Below, in pieces: positions 6,953 through 42,582 of a DNA stretch of 42,582 bases. The notes beneath the pieces were generated by a model. That model worked only from the letters and a program-made list of their open reading frames with translations. It was not told the origin of the DNA and did no database searches. Within the stretch, counting starts at the first letter, position 1; every line of letters starts with the position of its first letter. Position numbers and translations under genes: made by a program. Source of the DNA: Catajapyx aquilonaris (taxonomy: Eukaryota); assembly GCA_000934665.2 (NCBI GenBank), contig JYFJ02003385.1, forward strand, positions 1 to 42,582. Direction: 5' to 3'.

Positions 6953-7240
6953 AATAATAATAATTAATACCCCGTTATCAGCCATCATCGGCTCTTTAGG
7001 GAGGAAGTTTGTTTTACCAGGAACTCTTTGCTTTTCATTTTACTGTGCTCTTTGGGATAGGATAGGGACAGAAGGAAGCGGCTGTGGCCTATTAATTACG
7101 GAAGCAACTCCGGAATTTTCCTGGAAGGACCGTGGGAAACCACAGAAAACCACGGTCAGAGTTGCCGGCCCCGGGATTTGATCCCAGGACCTCCCGATTA
7201 GCAGTCGGACACCATATCCCCTACTCCAAACTGCTTCGGT
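6953..7240 (-). mobile_element. tRNA-derived SINE, family A copy 1
   Basis: Highly similar to 25119-25402 and 28790-29075. The - strand has a tRNA-like head (A box, GACTGCTAATC anticodon-like arm, degenerate B box) and an (ATT)n tail. TSD ATAATTCGAGAAAT (6939-6952) / ATAATTCGAAAAAT (7241-7254). Confidence 0.9.
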
Positions 7241-17893: not shown

Positions 17894-20772
17894 GATAGTC
17901 AGGATAAACACGTCGTCCCATTCGTTATGAGCGGGACTTGTACTGTACATCTCTATACGGTATGTTCGCAATTTGAAAGTTATTCATGCATGAATAGGGC
18001 TAATGGCGTACAGTACACTACGAATTACTCCTCAAATTCTGTCTTTGCCACAGAACCTTATAGACACATGCAACGGAAATGGAAAGTCGCACGAGTGTGA
18101 ATAGTAAAGGAAAGCAAAAAAAATCAAGCGAAAACAAAGCGAGAAAGAACAGGGTCCCACAAGAGACGTAGCAAGTCCACAAAAGGTCTTTCTTGGGAAA
18201 TCTCTCCTATTTGATCGGCTTGGATTTACGGCTTTTCCCCTCAATTTGCTCCGCTTATTCCTTCTAAGAAACTGATAAGCCTCGATGCAATACTGAATAT
18301 AAAAAAATCTAAGTCTACCTCGGATTTTTTCCCTTCTATTTTTACGTGCAGAAAATGGATTTTCAAGCATCCATTTGCAGAGGAAAGAGCTAGATGATTT
18401 TTCAGGCTTCTCCTTCAGCTTGGGAAGCAACTAATTAAGCAAGCGGTTTTAGGCGAGAAGCGATTTCTGTTTTCAAGCCACATAACACAGGTACGGAACC
18501 CAGTTCGTTCAATGCGGATTTTTTTTTTAATTGTCACCCTGACAGGTGCAAGGCCCGGTTGTTACCCGTGACTTATAGGCAACCGGTCACACGTGGCCGG
18601 TCCTTTTCAAACCCACACTACCGGGTGAGCTTTTTCACCTGTTGAATAGGGTAGTACTTTCTACCACCAAGTAGTGTCTCCGCGGTGGTGGCTAATAAGG
18701 CAAACGGTGCATGCGCAGACAGGCGTGTAATTGTGCATAGCATGATCACATGTCGCATGCTGCTCATCTTATCAGCCGTAAACGCTTTAATAGCTTGCTC
18801 TAAAGTGGTAGATTGCCTTGATACAGTATAAGAGGATGCATGTTATTTTTCAGCGTGTAGGACGCCCTTGGAATAATTGACGTTTGCCTCAATTTTTGAA
18901 GCTGTAGCAACATGATGAAGCACAGTATCAATTTGTAGATTAACGGAGGCAAAATAATGTAGTAGGCCTACTTCAAGGCTGATGGGATGGATGTTGCTGA
19001 ATTATTCACGGACTAAAAACTTCAGGATGTGTCAGACTATTTGCATAACTTAAAAACGTGCGTGCAAACTGTACACAAAGGTTACAACATTTCCATTTGG
19101 TCGGCCATTTTAACAGCCTTTGACGTCCTCCATTGTCCTGTATGAATACACAATGATGTTATTGGTTTTATTCGGCCCAAAACTGATGTGCCCTGGTTAC
19201 CCGTATTATGAATACATTGCAAAATATTATTTACAGGCGTCCCGGCAAACCTGCAAGCTCTCTCTGGTGCCTTGCTGCTGCTGCAGCAGCAGAAAATTCA
19301 TATATTTAAGCCTTAACTTACACATGCGTAAAGGACTCGGATCGATGCTTTCTTTAAGTGGACGAGGTAGACAAAAAATGTGTCTATACATATTCCTAAC
19401 AAGGTTACTTGGTACTGTACAGCATACAAGTGCGTGTGCAACCCTTGTTAATATCATAACTTATTAAAGGTACGCATTAACCAAATGTCTCATTTTTTTG
19501 GTGCTGTGCATGCAGTACGCTTATAATTTGTCTTTCAACGAGTAACAAATTAATGAGTTTTTGCTTTTAGCCTTTGTCATTAATATTTGCCTTGCAGCTT
19601 TTCATAAGTATTATCTACGTCAGCGGCCTCCAATAATACTCTTTCCTAATTGACCCTAATTTTTCGTGCAGTATTTTCTTGACATGATCCTGTCATAAAA
19701 GGTCCAGGTCATGACCCTACTTTAATCCACATAATATTGTAACCTTACATTGCCAATGGATAATGACAAATATGTGTCCCTTGTTATTAAGCTCCTGTAG
19801 ATTTAAAAATATAAGACATGTTGGTACTGTACTTGTAGTGAAAGGCAAATTAAAACTTCTGCAGGGGCCTTTTACGTGAAGCACTTTTGAGTTTAAATAC
19901 TTATAGGCTATAGTGCATAAGGTAATCAAGTCGTTATTTAACACGTGGCTATTTGAAAAGACAATATTATTGTTTCTGTTCTTATTTCACAGAAATTATG
20001 TTGCGACCATCACAACTTTACGCTTTTCGTCCTAAACTTCTTTAGTAAATATACCTACTGTTTAAAACCTAGCAGGGAATCCATTAAATGTGCATAAATT
20101 GATGAACAATGGGCTAGCACTTTTAACTGCAGAATGGGATTACGTGTAGATATACGTATAACATAAATAGTAGTAGTTTTTAGTAATGTTGTATTGTTTC
20201 GTACGCAAGCCTAGTCATGGGATCCAAATAGGCCAATTACAATGGAAAATACTGCTACTCATTATCTGATTTAGTCTATTTATATGAGTAGAAGGGAGTT
20301 CAATGTCACATGTCAAATTAGAAAGCCTTCGACTGGATTGCTTGTAAACCTACTAAACAACTAAATTATAAATCCCAAGTGGCATTTAACTAGATATGGC
20401 AATTAAATGTACCACGTGATACACATAAGCCACGCATTACTTTTCACTCTGTACCCATAATATTTACAGCATTCCTCCAGTGCCATCAACTGCACTTTCA
20501 AAATGTAGCCACTGCACTGTACCATATTCAGTCGTCAACACACATTCTCTGCAGAGAAGCACTTGAGTGCATGCACACCTTACAACAACCACAGTCCCAT
20601 TAAATTACAGCAACAGCTTTCCGTCGACGCACTGTACGCTTCACACGGTTGCAAGTCGAGATTTGAGAAGCGGTTCCCAGCCAGCTAACAAAACACGCAG
20701 GCCAGCACGACCCCACGTCTAACAAAATAAGTACACCATTGCAGGCATCAAGGACCCGCATCCCTCTCTCAC

Positions 20773-21391
20773 CTGATGCAGAAGACAAAGTTGAGGTGCA
20801 TGGATGGAGCGAGGTCGCGCTATAGTAAAGACCGTGTAGTAAAGTCAATATGTGGGGGAGAGTGAGCTGCGAGTAAAAGGGGCGGCGACCCCTCCAGTCT
20901 CGGCGCCCACAGACTCTCCCACTCCAGCAGCACCAGAGGTCATTTTCCCCCCAAAAAATGGTCCACTCGAGAAACAGTCGACCCCCCCAGCGCCCCCTCC
21001 CCGGTCACTGGTCACACATCCAAAGCACTGGTTATTCCATTGCTGATGTGGAGGAAGATGATGAGGATGCCGGCGGAAGAAGGCAACCTGGCGGCGGGTG
21101 GTGGTGGTGGTGGTGATACGGAGTCGGCGCCATTGGGAGGACGGGGCGCTAGTGTCCGGGTGGCGACATCTCCCAGCAGCAGGTGACGCCGGCCGATCCT
21201 CTCTCAGGCATTGTTGCAGACTAGGCACCTGCTCCAGACTGTTTGGCCGGATGATACATTCTCCCGACGCCACCCATGGGTTACTAGCACGAGCTCTCTT
21301 CACCCCCCACCCCCCTCCTCCCCAACCAGACACACACACACACACAGCCCCCTCTCCCCCCTCTCCAGGTCTCCCTCCAATAACCCCCCCT
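20773..21391 (-). other. Putative non-coding (5' UTR) exon in a GC/CpG-rich island, possibly of the TASK gene
   Basis: Long pyrimidine tract plus TTTAATCAG| acceptor (exon starts 21391) and CAG|GTGAG donor (exon ends 20773) on the - strand. No recognisable protein. A further AAG|GTGAG donor lies at 22279/22278. Confidence 0.35.
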
Positions 21392-22650
21392 CTGATTAAA
21401 TGAGGTAGGGAGGAGGGGGGTAAAAACAGGGAGGGTCGTCTCTTTTGCCCACACTTGGTCTGTGCGCATGTGCTTCTGCTGCATGGGTCTTATGCGGTTG
21501 CGCTCGTTACATCCGCAGGGTTCAGGCAGCCTCCGGATACGGATCATTTTGGATCCACCTGAAGCCGGGATACAAATTGGGATGCATGGAGAGGGACAAA
21601 AATAGGGAGGAGATCAATTCCTGGAGCCAAGCCATGCCATGTTTGTGTACTGCTCTTTCAAGCGTTTGAGCCCGGTTGCTAAATAATTAATGTTTTACAA
21701 ATATCACTCACAGTGCTGAATCAATGGTGCGCTAAATGACTCGCACTGTGCTCCTGAAAGGTCTCATTATTTAATGTCAGAGATTCAATTTGCGTCGGGA
21801 AATTAATGAAACAAAACAGAACCTGCAACCATTGCCAATCACAATGCAGGCATTAGTGCAACAAATGTCTTTTCCAATCACAATGGTTCTTTTTTTCCCC
21901 CCTTTTGTGTTTACAAGGAGTGCTTTCCTCCCGTGGTAACTCCATAATAAGAGTGCCGTCATGGGCGTAATTTTGCAGTTTCAATAACTGCATTGCGGTG
22001 AGCCCAGGATCCAAAATGGAGGTGCGGCACACCGGAAGGCGCAAGTGCAGCACATGGGATCCCCCTCTCCCCCCGCACCCTGCGACGGTCTCCATGGAAA
22101 CTCTGCCTCCCATCCCTCCTCTCTCTGTGTGCTAGAGTCTGCCGCCTCCCCCCATTTAACGCGGCTCCTCTCTCATCCCAGAAGACCCACTTTCCCCATC
22201 TTGTTTACCCTGGAATTTGGACAAGACCCTTCCGGACACCGCAGCCGATTCGGCCCACCTTGGCCCCTCTGGGCTCACCTTTTGCCCTGCCCTGCGCTCT
22301 TCCTGCTCACCACTTTCATTGCCCGTAATTCCTCATCCCCCCCTTTTTCCCGCCATTCTCCGGATTGATTGCAGAGAACGGTGGAAAGCGGGCCAATCGA
22401 TATATGTACCCCCCAGCTCTGCACCCACCACCACTGTGACAGTCCAAAGACACCCAATTCCAGCATCACCCACTCTGGCTCACGCATCTCTACTTCTTGG
22501 CGCAAACACTGCCGCATGTTGCAATTTGCACGGACATCGATCAAGTCCACAGGTTGGGACACTCCGGAGAAACGATGGTCCAAATGGACAATTCAAGGAC
22601 AATGGTCATCCTGGAAGGTGGATGACTTTTGTGTCTCGCTTGTTCAGCAA

Positions 22651-22819
22651 GAGGTCTACTAGCCAGGGGCGAAGAGTTTCGCGGGAGATCGACTAGCCAG
22701 GGGCGAAGAGTTTCGCGGGAGATCGACTAGCCAGGGGCGAAGAGTTTCGCGGGAGGTCGACTAGCCAGGGGCGAAGAGTTTCGCGGGAGGTTGACTAGCC
22801 AGGGGCGAAGAGTTCCGCG
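22651..22819. repeat. 34-bp minisatellite, 5 copies
   Basis: Unit GACTAGCCAGGGGCGAAGAGTTTCGCGGGAG(A/G)TC repeated head to tail with 1-2 substitutions per copy. A hAT-like end (GTTTGACAACCACTA) lies about 60 bp downstream. Confidence 0.95.
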
Positions 22820-24849
22820 ATTGTAAAACAGGGATCTGAAAACACAAATCATTGTGGGTCTAACAGAAAAAAATAGTTTGACAACCACTACTGTAACCGC
22901 TTCAGTGCAAAAGCGTGATTTATACCTGGTTCTACAAATCAGAATGTGAAGGCCTCTTGGCCAGAGTCGAGTGCAAACTCGGCTGAAAGAAGGGGAAAGG
23001 ACATCCGACCCGAAGAAAGGGGTTTTTTTGTGCTCTCCAAGTCTGCTGACACGGTCTGGACAAGCGCAACTGTCTCTGGAAGACAGAGGTCATGGTTCCC
23101 GCCGGATCGATCCAAAGTAAACAGATGACTGCAAATCCCTTTTCCGCCCAATTTTCATTTTCACCTCCCACCTGCTGGGGTCACAAACGCGAACCATGGT
23201 CTGTTTGTTCTCGACCTCAGGCTAGAGATACGTCAGGGAGAAACACACAAAAAAATGCCGATGTATGACCGGAGAACAGATGACTGGAGGCTATATCCAA
23301 TTTCGCAGTCACCTTCACTCTAATGTTTATTCCTCCTGGCACCTTTTCACCCCGTTGGCTCTTTTGACATTCATTGTGACTGGCATAGCCTCATTCATAT
23401 TGCTGCACTCAATTTGAATGCAATTGCTTCACTTCCTATCCATCCAGTGTCCTGCACTGATTGCATCTGAAGTATTGTCTTGCGAGTTACTCGGTTCTTG
23501 GTCCTACTTTATGCCTAATTAACAAGGACGGCATGTAAATTAATTGTTTCTCATGCAAGGGGTCAAAATAATTGACAAACTCGGCCTGATAAAATTCACT
23601 ATTCACAACTCTCGTGCACGGGTTGACAAAATGAATTAACTAGGCCGCTGGTACAGGCATTCTTTAGAGCTTTAAACGGAGCGTAAATTGCCCTGCATTC
23701 ATCGACTAACAGCACAACAATATTGACGTCAACAAGCACGGGAAAGCTAATTATGTTCACTTGATTACAACTTCACACTCGGGATTCTTTTACCACTCCC
23801 GACATCGGCGACATGATATTCATGGATCCAAAGGCTAATCCGGGTCAATAATTGGATCTGGCGATTAAATTCCACAGATCATGCGCTTCCATCGATTTCG
23901 TTGTTCAAGCAGTTATAGATAGCACACAGGCTAATTATAGAATTAACGTGCCTTGTAGATTACACCACGGTACAGTATCAGAAACAAATACCAAACGCAA
24001 GCGTGGAATGGTCATGTATGACGCACGTATTAATTCAGAGATTCACGCTTCTGCGAAAGTTTGCAACATATAACATGGGAATGCTTTCAGCGTGACACTA
24101 TTTACAATGCATGACCTTTTGGTAAACCAACTCTGCTCTCACAATGTCAGCCACGACTTGGGAGGTAGTCTGCGTATTGACATTTCAAGTGGTCAGTTTG
24201 GTCAGTTGGAGACATCTGGATGTTCCCACAACAGAAAACACAATGATGGGTAACATCCAAGTGGGATGGAGTACTCACCCACATCCACACCAGTCTTCAT
24301 GAAACCAGAACCATGCTATACAGTGAAACATGTCTAGGATCCAAGCCACGCCGAATATTTCCCTGCTGTTGAATGTCATGCTTGCAAATTATTTCACTGC
24401 AACAAATTGTCAGAAAAATGTAAACTTTGTACTGACAATACCACGAAACTACTGATCAAAACTCGTGCCACATTAATTTTGTGCACGGAATAATATTACC
24501 ACCGCATCTAAAATTCATCCCTTTGTAAGTACACAATGACGGCACAAACTAAAAATTTTCCTTCAACCAAAAATAAGAGAGGGAACTTCACACCAATTCT
24601 TCTCTTCTTCATTCCCCGTCCTGCCCCCATCCTGCACGTTTCACCAAAAGGGGACCCATGTCAATAGACATAATTATCACTGCCTTTTCCCCGATCTTAT
24701 TATACCAGCTTGGGAACTGATTCTTTGCTTCTCATTTTACTCGCATAATGCAACATAATTTTGCCACAGTCATAAGCCAAATGGGTTAATAGTGGAAGCG
24801 GTACACAGAAAAATTCCCTTGGTGGAGTTGTTCATTGGACCAATTAAAG

Positions 24850-28789: not shown

Positions 28790-29075
28790 TTTTTTGTTTT
28801 TTTTTACCCCGTTATCAGCCATCGGCTCTTTAGGGGGGACGTTTGTTTTGCCTGGAACGCTTTGCTTTTCATTTTACTGCGCTCTTTGGGATAGGATAGG
28901 GACGGAAGGAAGCGACTGTGGCCTATTAATTACGGAAGCATCTCCGGAATTTCCCTGGAAGGACCGTGGGAAACCACAGAAAACCACGGTCAGAGTTGCC
29001 GGCCCCGGGATTCGAACCCAGGACCTCCCGATTAGCAGTCGGACGCCTTATCCACTATGCCAACCTGCTTCGGTT
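28790..29075 (-). mobile_element. tRNA-derived SINE, family A copy 3 (best preserved)
   Basis: The - strand has A box TGGCATAGTGG, B box GGTTCGAATCC and a poly(A) tail. Perfect 16-bp TSD TGATGTAACACAGTTG (28774-28789 / 29076-29091). Confidence 0.93.
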
Positions 29076-29258: not shown

Positions 29259-29591
29259 GGAGAGGCGGAGTGGTACTGCGGTAACGTATGCGCCCACGGA
29301 TGTTAAAGTCCCGGGTTCGAATCCAACCCGGGGACACCCCCTTCATCTCGTGCAGAGTTATGAGTCGTCTCTGACTTCGTCTCGGGTGGAATTTCCTTAG
29401 ACTAATCCACCCGGGGAAGCTCACAAAACGATCACATTTCAGACAAGGCACTGCGCCTGCACATCCCCTCCTGTCATCCCATCCTGCCCGTGAGCCCGGG
29501 CGTCGTAAAAATAGGATTCCAAGTTGTAAAAACACCTCAAAAATAAATAAAGGTCTGGCAGAAAACCCCTAGGGGTACGCCTATCACCATT
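29259..29591 (+). mobile_element. tRNA-derived SINE, family C
   Basis: A-box-like TGGTACTGCGG, B box GGTTCGAATCC. 14-bp TSD ATACCGTACATATC (29245-29258) / ATACTGTACATATC (29592-29605). Confidence 0.85.
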
Positions 29592-29646
29592 ATACTGTAC
29601 ATATCAGACAGCCTACATTGTACTTTGGATTGCTTTCATTACTGGC

Positions 29647-29912
29647 CTGCCCCCCGATGGTATCTCCACCTTATCGTGGTGGTGGGGTTTGCGTTTCTCC
29701 CGTGACCCCAAGAGTTATGCCAGCGGTAGCTTCGTCTACTGGCAGGGCCACCCAAGCCGGACAGGTCTTTGGGATAGGAGACAGACTAAGAGAGATACCA
29801 GTCTTTCCTCTCTTCTTTTTCCTCTTCGTTTCTCTCTCCATCTGTGCCACTTTGCGTCTTCTTATAGCCAGATAGCCATAGTTGCTTCTTCCGAATAAAC
29901 CAAACTAAACCA
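29647..29912 (+). mobile_element. Short non-autonomous retroposon with an RTE/Ingi-like 5' end and (AAACY)n tail
   Basis: TSD ATTACTGGC (29638-29646 / 29913-29921) and tail AATAAACCAAACTAAACC. 5' motifs CACCTTATCGTGGTG...GGGG and AGGGCCACCCAAG.CGGACAGGTC resemble, from memory, the 5' ends of RTE-clade LINEs (Expander/BovB). No Pol III A/B boxes. Confidence 0.8.
29650..29799 (+). ncRNA. Putative HDV-like self-cleaving ribozyme
   Basis: Manual fold: P1 CCCCCC 29650-55 / GTGGGG 29682-87 (1 mismatch); P2 GGTATCTC 29659-66 / GAGATACC 29792-99 (perfect); P3 CAC/GTG around loop CTTATCGTG; extended P4 closed by TCTCC/GGAGA; J4/2 CTAA at 29786-89. Confidence 0.65.
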
Positions 29913-30343
29913 ATTACTGGCGTGTTTCAGGAGTTCTGTACAAAGTTACTGTTGAAATGTGCCTAGTGCCTACGTTTCCCTCTTAAAGATATGCTTCACA
30001 AGGACTTTTGAGTATGCTTTCGTGCTCAAAAGTCCCTATCAACTGCCTATACAAATTATGCGATATTTAGTTATATTCAATAATATTTTATGAATGATCT
30101 TAAAAAGTATACATTTACAATAATTACAGGAGAACATTTGCTTACACATGATGCACTTCCTGGCATGAATTATTTTCTGAATGAGTTTGTGTTAGCTTCT
30201 GTGCCTGAACTTTCAAGTCATTTTGATGCAGTCTTGTCCGGTCTTGTCTCTTTGTGAACAAAGCGGGTGGTGGGCGAGGGAGCAGCCAGGGGGCTCGAAA
30301 AAAGTCTTATAGAACACTGTGTGTGTCTGTCTAATACATGTCC

Positions 30344-41687: not shown

Positions 41688-41895
41688 GTGAGATAATTGG
41701 CGATTGCCATCAGAAAAAAAACGGAAACCTTCTGCTTTTGAAAGTTGTTGGTGCGCGCACCCAGAGGAAGAGCTAATCACATTAATTAAGTATGTGAAGC
41801 GCACAACGACCTCGATGATTGCAGGAACGTGTCCGTCGTACTACATGGCAGTTAACACCATGGGAGAATTCACATCCGTTTCTCTTCTTCACCAG

Positions 41896-42210
41896 TCGTA
41901 CTCGGGCATCTCCGGTTCTCTGGCGGTATCACGTCGTCCCCAGCACCTTCCTCTGGGGGCAACTTCTGGTGGCTGTTCATACCCACACACCCCAACACCG
42001 TCTCCAGAGTCAGTCGACGACTGCGATTCCGTTCGCAGTTTCGGAAGCAATTACAGCTCCGCTTCCTGCGACTGTGTGTTTGCCAAGAATGGAACCACGT
42101 TCTCGGGACGGAAGATGAAGTACGTGGTGCATTGCGCTCGCAGGCCGGACAATGTCGAGGAGTATCTCACCCCTACTCAGAGAGCTCAAAGACAGATCAG
42201 GCATTTGAAG
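41896..42210 (+). CDS. qtc: quick-to-court-like coiled-coil protein, conserved exon; gene continues beyond the right edge
   Basis: CTTCACCAG| acceptor and AAG|GTAAAA donor. Encodes [32 protein letters not shown]...[17 protein letters not shown], recognised from memory as the arthropod quick-to-court motif preceding the coiled coil. Confidence 0.82.
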
Positions 42211-42582
42211 GTAAAAATTATTAAATTTCTTATTATATCAAAAACTTTCCTTCAGTAAAAAAAGAGAAGTAAGACCTCCGCGGCGGAATAAAAGTACTGA
42301 AGCAAGGCAGGCGCACGACCTTCACCAATTGATTTAAGCTGTACCATAGGTCTTACTCAAGCAATTCCCAATTCACTGCTCATGAAGTCTCCTTTCTGAA
42401 ACCAATTTGTGAAATTTTCGTCCTACTACTAATTACTTCTAACAGCAGTACCAGTGTACTGCAATTGTACTGCTAAGTTAGCAGCAACTACAGACCTATA
42501 GTTCATAGTAATAATAGTAGTACGACGAAAATTCCGCCCATTAATTTTCCATGAGCCACTCCATATTAGTGTTTTATGAAAT

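Follow-up and report, generated by a model that had tools for sequence, protein, structure and literature searches.

Short nonautonomous elements that retain just the 5' end and the 3' end of a long interspersed nuclear element (LINE), with no open reading frame (ORF) between them, have been described as bipartite nonautonomous LINEs. According to Kojima (2018; PMC5786205), such elements are nearly confined to RTE, Ingi/Vingi and R2, and their retained 5' end is linked to a predicted self-cleaving ribozyme. A review (PMC6765202) describes RTEs as having ribozymes similar to that of hepatitis delta virus (HDV) and as lacking promoters of their own, and states that some LINEs and short interspersed nuclear elements (SINEs) use such ribozymes. 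The results presented here concern a 266-bp insert in a 42,582-nt stretch of DNA from Catajapyx aquilonaris (contig JYFJ02003385.1, positions 1 to 42,582, hereafter the window), where it occupies positions 29647-29912. The insert is probably one copy of a high-copy, ORF-less, bipartite nonautonomous retroposon of the RTE type that carries an HDV-like ribozyme as its head. A short element that frees itself by means of a 5' ribozyme is not new, as is evident from the descriptions in PMC5786205, PMC3414825 and PMC6765202.

The closest described elements are RTESINE2, WALLSI3, MAR4_MD and RTE1-N1_LA. Like these, as they are presented in PMC5786205, the element in the window is short and non-coding, joins an RTE 5' end to a 3' tail without a small-RNA head, and is multi-copy with target duplications. 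Unlike the bipartite RTE elements of that paper, it forms a family of its own with its own tail, and the 5' domain is left unfolded in the sections of the paper and supplement that present it. The R2 SIDEs and R2/R1 hybrid SIDEs described by Eickbush and Eickbush (2012; PMC3414825), the latter with a ribozyme head on the tail of another LINE, are a second point of comparison. R2 SIDEs also begin with an HDV-like ribozyme, joined to the LINE 3' end by internal deletion, and the hybrids borrow the machinery of a different LINE, as the sequence-only reading of the window had proposed for the insert. However, R2 SIDEs are site-specific in ribosomal RNA genes and rare in that account, whereas the family described here is dispersed and very abundant, and its head is of the RTE type with a much larger, sequence-conserved P4 domain.

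The trypanosomatid elements NARTc, RIME and SIDER (PMC3185411, PMC4035085) are likewise short and nonautonomous, and keep the HDV-like ribozyme (Pr77/L1TcRz) of the LINE 5' end. They belong to the Ingi/L1Tc clade, their compact 77-nt ribozyme doubles as a promoter, and its cleavage at +1 was shown experimentally. A motif in the head had been likened to the Pr77 core of L1Tc; a search of the text of PMC3185411 and PMC4035085 did not turn this motif up, the relatives of the head are RTE 5' ends, and the likeness is not supported. Literature searches returned nothing relevant, in the article text they reached, that joins HDV-like ribozymes to Rex3 or BovB, or drz-Agam-2 to RTE. The novelty of the present analysis would be modest, and would lie in reading a conserved RTE 5' domain as an HDV-like ribozyme with a large P4.

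The insert is flanked on both sides by an exact 9-bp target-site duplication, ATTACTGGC, at 29638-29646 and 29913-29921 (plus strand, as are all features of the insert below). Both the limits of the element and its duplication are exactly as first proposed. The two bases CT (29647-29648) that separate the left duplication from the predicted cleavage site are probably extra 5'-junction bases. Rfam and tRNA scans found no tRNA, 5S, 7SL or any Rfam family within the insert. Two stop-free frames cross it, one at 29551-29898 that begins in the upstream flank and one at 29573-29875 of 100 codons; the Pfam scan covered the first of these and returned no match. The description of the element as non-tRNA and non-coding agrees with these scans, and an insert that lacks both a small-RNA head and a Pfam match in the scanned frame has these features in common with bipartite nonautonomous LINEs of the RTE clade.

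The copies of the element were studied through Logan contigs mapped on 29450-30110; one sample contributed three DNA runs, and a second study a single run. Between 771 and 859 contigs per DNA run mapped on this stretch. In run X1, the summed word depth was 47,000-109,000 over 29657-29840 and 39-50 in the unique flank from 29933, an approximately thousand-fold contrast, although word depth is not a copy number. In 12-13 contigs from each of runs X2 and X3, resemblance to other copies sets in at 29650 and is preceded by unlike sequence. Past 29912, the depth drops to the level of the flank. Because the start of likeness near 29650, the drop in depth after 29912 and the flanking duplication coincide, the limits of the family are the limits of the insert. 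The insert is one copy of a very high-copy dispersed family, and contig depth together with the flanking repeats bears out the earlier proposal of a multi-copy retroposon family with target duplications. No second copy of the insert occurs elsewhere in the window. Within the head, depth roughly doubles from the 5' half to the 3' half, a rise that 5' truncation of many copies would predict.

Behind the head, the element consists of a spacer and a tail. The pyrimidine-rich spacer (29801-29850) contains TTTTT at 29816-29820 and has the greatest depth of the family in the contig mapping. The 3' tail (29851-29912) contains AATAAA (29894-29899), which is conserved in the family and lies 13 nt from the end of the element, and two occurrences of TAAACCAA (29896-29903 and 29906-29913). 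Loose contig ends at 29850 and 29887 resemble the tail of this copy, as in ...CCTAATAAACCAAAC..., and small insertions and deletions break the tail in the contig alignment. Because other copies carry a similar tail, the tail is a feature of the family and is not private to this copy.

In ribozymes of the canonical HDV, CPEB3 and drz type, the strands follow the order P1-P2-P3-P1'-P4-P2', the cut lies at a G-U pair, L3 is a loop of 7 nt, and a C in a CNRA context precedes the 3' strand of P2. The head of the insert, its first approximately 150 nt, folds in the same strand order and shares the G-U pair, the 7-nt L3 and the CNRA C. P1 is formed by GCCCCCC (29649-29655) and GTGGGGT (29682-29688). 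It begins with the pair G29649-U29688 and has six of seven pairs, with either one C x U mismatch, as noted from the outset, or a bulged U with G29681 joining the helix. The predicted cut is 5' of G29649, 2 nt from the end of the duplication. The first P1 pair, the start of likeness among copies near 29650 and the end of the duplication thus fall together at the 5' limit of the family, close to where the cut had been placed before, the agreement being one of position alone. P2 pairs TGGTATCTC (29658-29666) with GAGATACCA (29792-29800) through nine Watson-Crick pairs; the pairing is that given in the sequence-only reading, and the length is 9 bp instead of 8. P3 (CACC/GGTG) and the loop L3, TTATCGT, occupy 29667-29681.

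The joining stretch TTGCGTT (29689-29695) follows P1 and contains a candidate partner for P1.1. It leads into a branched P4 domain of approximately 87 nt (29695-29781), with helices at 29695-29700/29777-81, 29707-15/29764-73, 29720-24/29756-60, 29725-29/29736-40 and 29745-47/29751-53. The joining stretch J4/2, CAGACTAAGA (29782-29791), contains invariant CAGAC and AAG and is followed by the 3' strand of P2. The candidate catalytic residue is C29786 within CTAA, located 6 nt ahead of P2', where it had been pointed out before. Because J4/2 is 6-10 nt long and not 4, C29782 (within CAGA) is an alternative candidate. Both residues stand in a putative CNRA context and both are invariant in the three aligned sequences.

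Relatives of the head were sought with a pattern of three blocks, namely the 3' strand of P1 with J1/4, P4, and J4/2, in which the 5' strand of P1 and both strands of P2 were left unspecified. Among metagenome contigs, the pattern matched two, here called L001 and L002; an exact 24-mer of the family had no match in the same contigs, and two patterns had no match in viral contigs. The identity of the head to L001 is 73% and to L002 64%. The sole pattern match among genome contigs (L003) is a chance match, its P3-L3 motif CCACCTTATCGTGGTG (401-427) lying within a bacterial coding sequence. Translated, it gives ...SDHLIVVADL..., with which an endonuclease/exonuclease/phosphatase protein ends as its C-terminal motif, and it is unrelated to the head.

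L002 is a LINE 5' end from a teleost, with a frame for an apurinic-type endonuclease (APE) that starts approximately 440 nt after the head. The relatives of its protein are single APE and reverse transcriptase proteins of 1000-1063 aa from many teleosts, some encoded on 3.4-kb contigs. A single ORF that begins so near the 5' end is the layout of RTE elements. Some of the related proteins bear the source names "F52C9.6" or "craniofacial development protein 2", which we take to be the Caenorhabditis elegans RTE-1 frame and a BovB-derived bucentaur domain, respectively. The single-ORF layout and the names given by the source, as opposed to a tree, place L002 in the RTE clade, an assignment to be read as likely. 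L001 (contig Ga0123352_10018514) is a short element of approximately 300 bp flanked by TGTA/ATAC microsatellites. Its L3 (700-735, minus strand) has 15 extra bases able to form a small hairpin, GGCA...TGCC. By manual count, the TGCGTG block is at position 58 in L001 and at position 57 in the locust RTE-56/60_LMi consensus. The longer loop matches the locust spacing and may be a trait of a subfamily as opposed to decay.

The supplement of PMC5786205 shows this domain for RTE-60_LMi and RTE-56_LMi of locust, for RTE-4_PM, RTE-7_PM, RTE-3_Crp and RTE-14_Lch, and also for BovB_Plat and Afrotherian RTE1. The 5' part of the insert is therefore homologous to the 5' ends of autonomous RTEs, as found both for L002, with 64% identity and shared helices, and for the printed domains. 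Judged by these comparisons, the head is plainly the conserved domain of the 5' untranslated region (UTR) of RTE-clade LINEs.

The helices of the head are maintained in its relatives by compensatory changes. An alignment (A2) of the window head, L001 and L002 was compared with a structure taken from the window, comprising P2, P3 and five P4 helices. Across the 34 pairs of these seven helices, 93.9% of cells are paired and 14 pairs have changed on both sides. None of 500 shuffles reached either the paired fraction or the compensated count, and shifting the 3' partners by 1-3 columns left 35-50% of cells paired with 0-2 compensated pairs. In P2, GGTATCTC/GAGATACC of the window correspond to TGAGCTAC/GTAGCTCA in L002, with six of eight pairs exchanged. 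The basal P4 helix reads TCTCC/GGAGA, GTCCC/GGGAT and GGTGC/GCACC in the three sequences, whereas P3 and L3 are identical in the window and L002. The joining stretches TTTGCGT (29688-29694) and CAGAC-AAG are invariant and the helices variable, which would be the usual pattern of a catalytic core.

RNAalifold, run without a supplied structure, found 44 pairs, 17 of them compensated, and in this way recovered P2, P3 and the greater part of P4. Compensatory changes thus keep P2, P3 and most of P4 in the strand order proposed from the single sequence. For P4, the proposed helices TCTCC/GGAGA and CCCAA/TTGGG are present and covary; TGCCA/TGGCA can also pair, but RNAalifold puts 29720-24/29756-60, with three compensated pairs, in its place. 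MAFFT aligned the sequences without P1 in register, and P1 was counted by script from its strands. It is paired in 19 of 21 cells over the three sequences, with one exchange of U-A and C-G as its single compensated position. Together, covariation and RNAalifold support a nested double pseudoknot, in which P1 crosses P2 and both P3 and P4 are nested in P2.

Further RTE sequences were compared by eye. The second P4 helix reads GTTGAGG/CCTCAAC, CCCTCAG/CTGGGGG and GCTTAG/CTAAGC in printed RTEs, and the helix equivalent to 29720-24/29756-60 reads TCGCC/GGCGA and CCATT/AATGG. In RTE1-N1_LA, P1 is CACCAC/GTGGTG, P2 is TCTGTC/GACAGA, and P2' directly follows CTAA.

Variation among the copies of the family points in the same direction. 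The window copy departs from nearly all others at three positions, where they have C (29715), G (29722) and C (29846), and from most of them at 29743, where they have T. With the consensus C, position 29715 forms a C-G pair in P4 in place of U-G. The helix 29720-24/29756-60 is broken in the window copy at A29722 x C29758, and the consensus G at 29722 restores pairing. Among the variants listed, those that are both common and located in helices (29797 A>G, 29757 C>T, 29758 C>T) still pair as G-U, common ones at 29702, 29743, 29748 and 29750 lie in unpaired places, and pair-breaking ones (29759, 29737 and 29770) are at no more than 4.5% of depth. The window copy deviates from the consensus at two P4 pairs and has the mismatch or bulge in P1, and may be a poor cutter. 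The earlier suspicion that this copy is impaired was based on P1 and P1.1, and the two weakened P4 pairs add to it.

Tests on the single sequence were less decisive. An HDV-type descriptor of our own was scanned over both strands of the whole window. With unweighted pairs, the site scores 19, and the other 15 of the 16 hits listed (8 per strand) score 19-22. With weights of 3 for GC, 2 for AT and 1 for GU, chosen after the unweighted outcome was known, the site leads all hits in the window with 49, and none of 20 dinucleotide-shuffled windows reached this score (best shuffle 46). The runner-up, with 48 at 21148, was judged a chance hit: the stretch around it is GC-rich and does not resemble the head. 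The minimum free energy of the whole element, computed for a pseudoknot-free fold, is no better than that of shuffles (z 0.18). In L002, the top descriptor hit is the homologous site, with P1 7/7, P2 8, P3 4 and the C at 308. The fold of the single sequence is suggestive only, and the weight of the evidence is carried by the copies and the relatives.

Several observations weigh against the ribozyme reading. Besides the unweighted scan, the descriptor fails on L001, in which L3 has the 15-nt insert. Rfam, with its HDV-like families included, gave no match to the window head, L001 or L002 at E values up to 10, which may be due to the large P4. Formal covariation covers three sequences only, the remaining RTEs having been compared by eye. 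P1 itself covaries little: shifted registers still pair 9-16 of 21 cells because its strands are runs of C and G, and its support appears to come mainly from conservation and position. P1.1 is another difficulty. The bases after P1 are UU and L3 has a single A, leaving no canonical register directly after P1; the alternative, CG in L3 with CG at 29692-93, lies 3 nt further on and involves positions that are all invariant, with no covariation to judge by. J4/2, at 6-10 nt, is longer than in HDV or CPEB3, where it is 4 nt. RNAalifold also predicts an invariant helix, GUUUG (29687-91) with CAGAC (29782-86), which would rival P1 and conceal both candidate catalytic C residues. This helix may belong to an inactive fold that alternates with the ribozyme; another possibility is that its three inner pairs continue P4.

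P4 also departs from the canonical type, being branched and conserved in sequence over approximately 87 nt. Long stretches within it, including GGTAGGGYCACCC and ACAGGTC, are invariant; such invariance is unusual in a peripheral helix and hints that P4 has another role as well. A tentative extension, possible but short of an even prospect, is that the RTE 5' domain supplies the P3-P4-J4/2 core in a separate, large-P4 subclass of HDV-like ribozymes, which Rfam models miss. The branched, conserved P4 would then serve a further purpose, for instance in recognition of the 5' end by the RTE protein or in the start of translation. Such a subclass would account for the readiness with which RTE, more than any other clade, gives rise to short bipartite elements.

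A bipartite RTE-type retroposon with an HDV-like ribozyme head suggests the following course of events. The element would be transcribed by RNA polymerase II, either from a neighbouring promoter or within a longer transcript. Polymerase II would be used as opposed to polymerase III because TTTTT at 29816-29820 would stop polymerase III and because a conserved AATAAA lies near the end. The head would then fold and cut itself 5' of G29649, giving an exact RNA 5' end. Recognition of the 3' tail would fall to the reverse transcriptase encoded by a partner LINE, the likeliest partner being an RTE in this genome, and the outcome would be insertion with a 9-bp duplication and frequent 5' truncation of copies. 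The family with its limits and duplication, the helices, and the homology that relates the head to RTE 5' ends are observed, whereas catalysis, the polymerase and the partner LINE are putative.

The first of the competing explanations concerns the tail. The element could be a true chimera, with an RTE ribozyme head and the 3' end of a LINE from another clade whose machinery it borrows, comparable to R2/R1 hybrid SIDEs. The tail is unlike the parts that follow the ribozyme in L001 or L002, such hybrids are reported from Drosophila (PMC3414825), and tail exchange in SINEs, as described in PMC5786205, indicates that 5' and 3' parts are separable. However, nothing in the analysis ties the tail to any clade, including the I/Nimb type put forward initially, and most of the bipartite elements described in PMC5786205 have both ends from one RTE. 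The tail motif was not found among the sequences in the supplement of that paper. That other copies of the family share the tail fits a chimera and a non-chimera alike. A chimeric origin is considered rather unlikely.

It is less likely still that the head is a conserved, structured RTE 5'-UTR domain that does not cut itself, serving instead as a polymerase II promoter, a protein-binding site or a translation-start structure, and that its HDV order is a look-alike. Such a role would account for the unusual sequence conservation of P4, the lacking Rfam match, the absence of a canonical placement for P1.1 and the competing invariant helix, and Kojima (2018; PMC5786205), where the domain is presented, leaves its function open and proposes the binding of a regulator. 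A structure of this kind does not readily explain why a long-range P2 that crosses P1 is kept with wholly different sequences, why a G-U or A-U pair falls exactly at the 5' limit of the family, or why an invariant C in CNRA context stands just ahead of P2'. That RTE 5' ends carry ribozymes has also been predicted before (Ruminski 2011, cited in both PMC5786205 and PMC6765202), and a second role for P4 is compatible with catalysis. An improbable look-alike on this evidence, the domain is better described as a probable ribozyme.

That the fold is a chance match and the insert an ordinary repeat without structured RNA, as the unweighted scan and the shuffle-like free energy might suggest, is very improbable and is contradicted by the 14 compensated pairs on three sequences (0 of 500 shuffles), the independent recovery of the helices by RNAalifold, the top descriptor hit at the homologous site in L002 and the weighted score that no shuffled window reached.

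The analysis provides a concrete, testable fold for a conserved RTE 5'-UTR domain whose function is listed as unknown in transposon catalogues. It also reveals a family that is very abundant even though it consists of little more than this domain and a tail. If cleavage occurs, it would explain how promoter-less RTE derivatives obtain a defined 5' end from any host transcript, and why SINE bodies that reuse the domain are without its first approximately 20 bases; the models by which HDV-like ribozymes are annotated would also gain a large-P4 type. For annotation, the repeat belongs under RTE-derived nonautonomous LINEs and not under unknown SINEs.

A head 14-mer at approximately 29765-29778 (the CTTTGGGATAGG region) recurs exactly at 7049-7062 and 28883-28896 (E 0.11 each). 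The second recurrence falls inside a minus-strand SINE, and both are probably due to chance or internal to the SINE. This SINE (approximately 28800-29068) is one of two tRNA-derived SINEs just upstream of the insert; its tRNA-like head at 28997-29068 was called by Rfam and ARAGORN. The other is on the plus strand at approximately 29260-29560, with a tRNA-like head at approximately 29262-29335. The stretch 29450-29600 upstream of the insert is also repetitive in the mapped contigs.

The G+C content of the window is approximately 41%. A stretch at 20000-24000 is GC-rich (48-50%, compared to approximately 41% elsewhere) and contains several stop-free frames of 100-214 codons; Pfam gave no match for the seven frames of this stretch that were scanned. 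An exon at 41692-42258 (plus strand) matches residues 80-174 of insect 'quick-to-court' proteins. Its best matches are from cockroach, termites, locusts and stick insects, with 54-71% identity, including 63% identity to a 568-aa cockroach protein. The exon shares the strand of the insert and lies 12 kb downstream of it. If the gene has an upstream exon, the insert would sit in sense orientation within an intron and be co-transcribed with the 'quick-to-court' gene.

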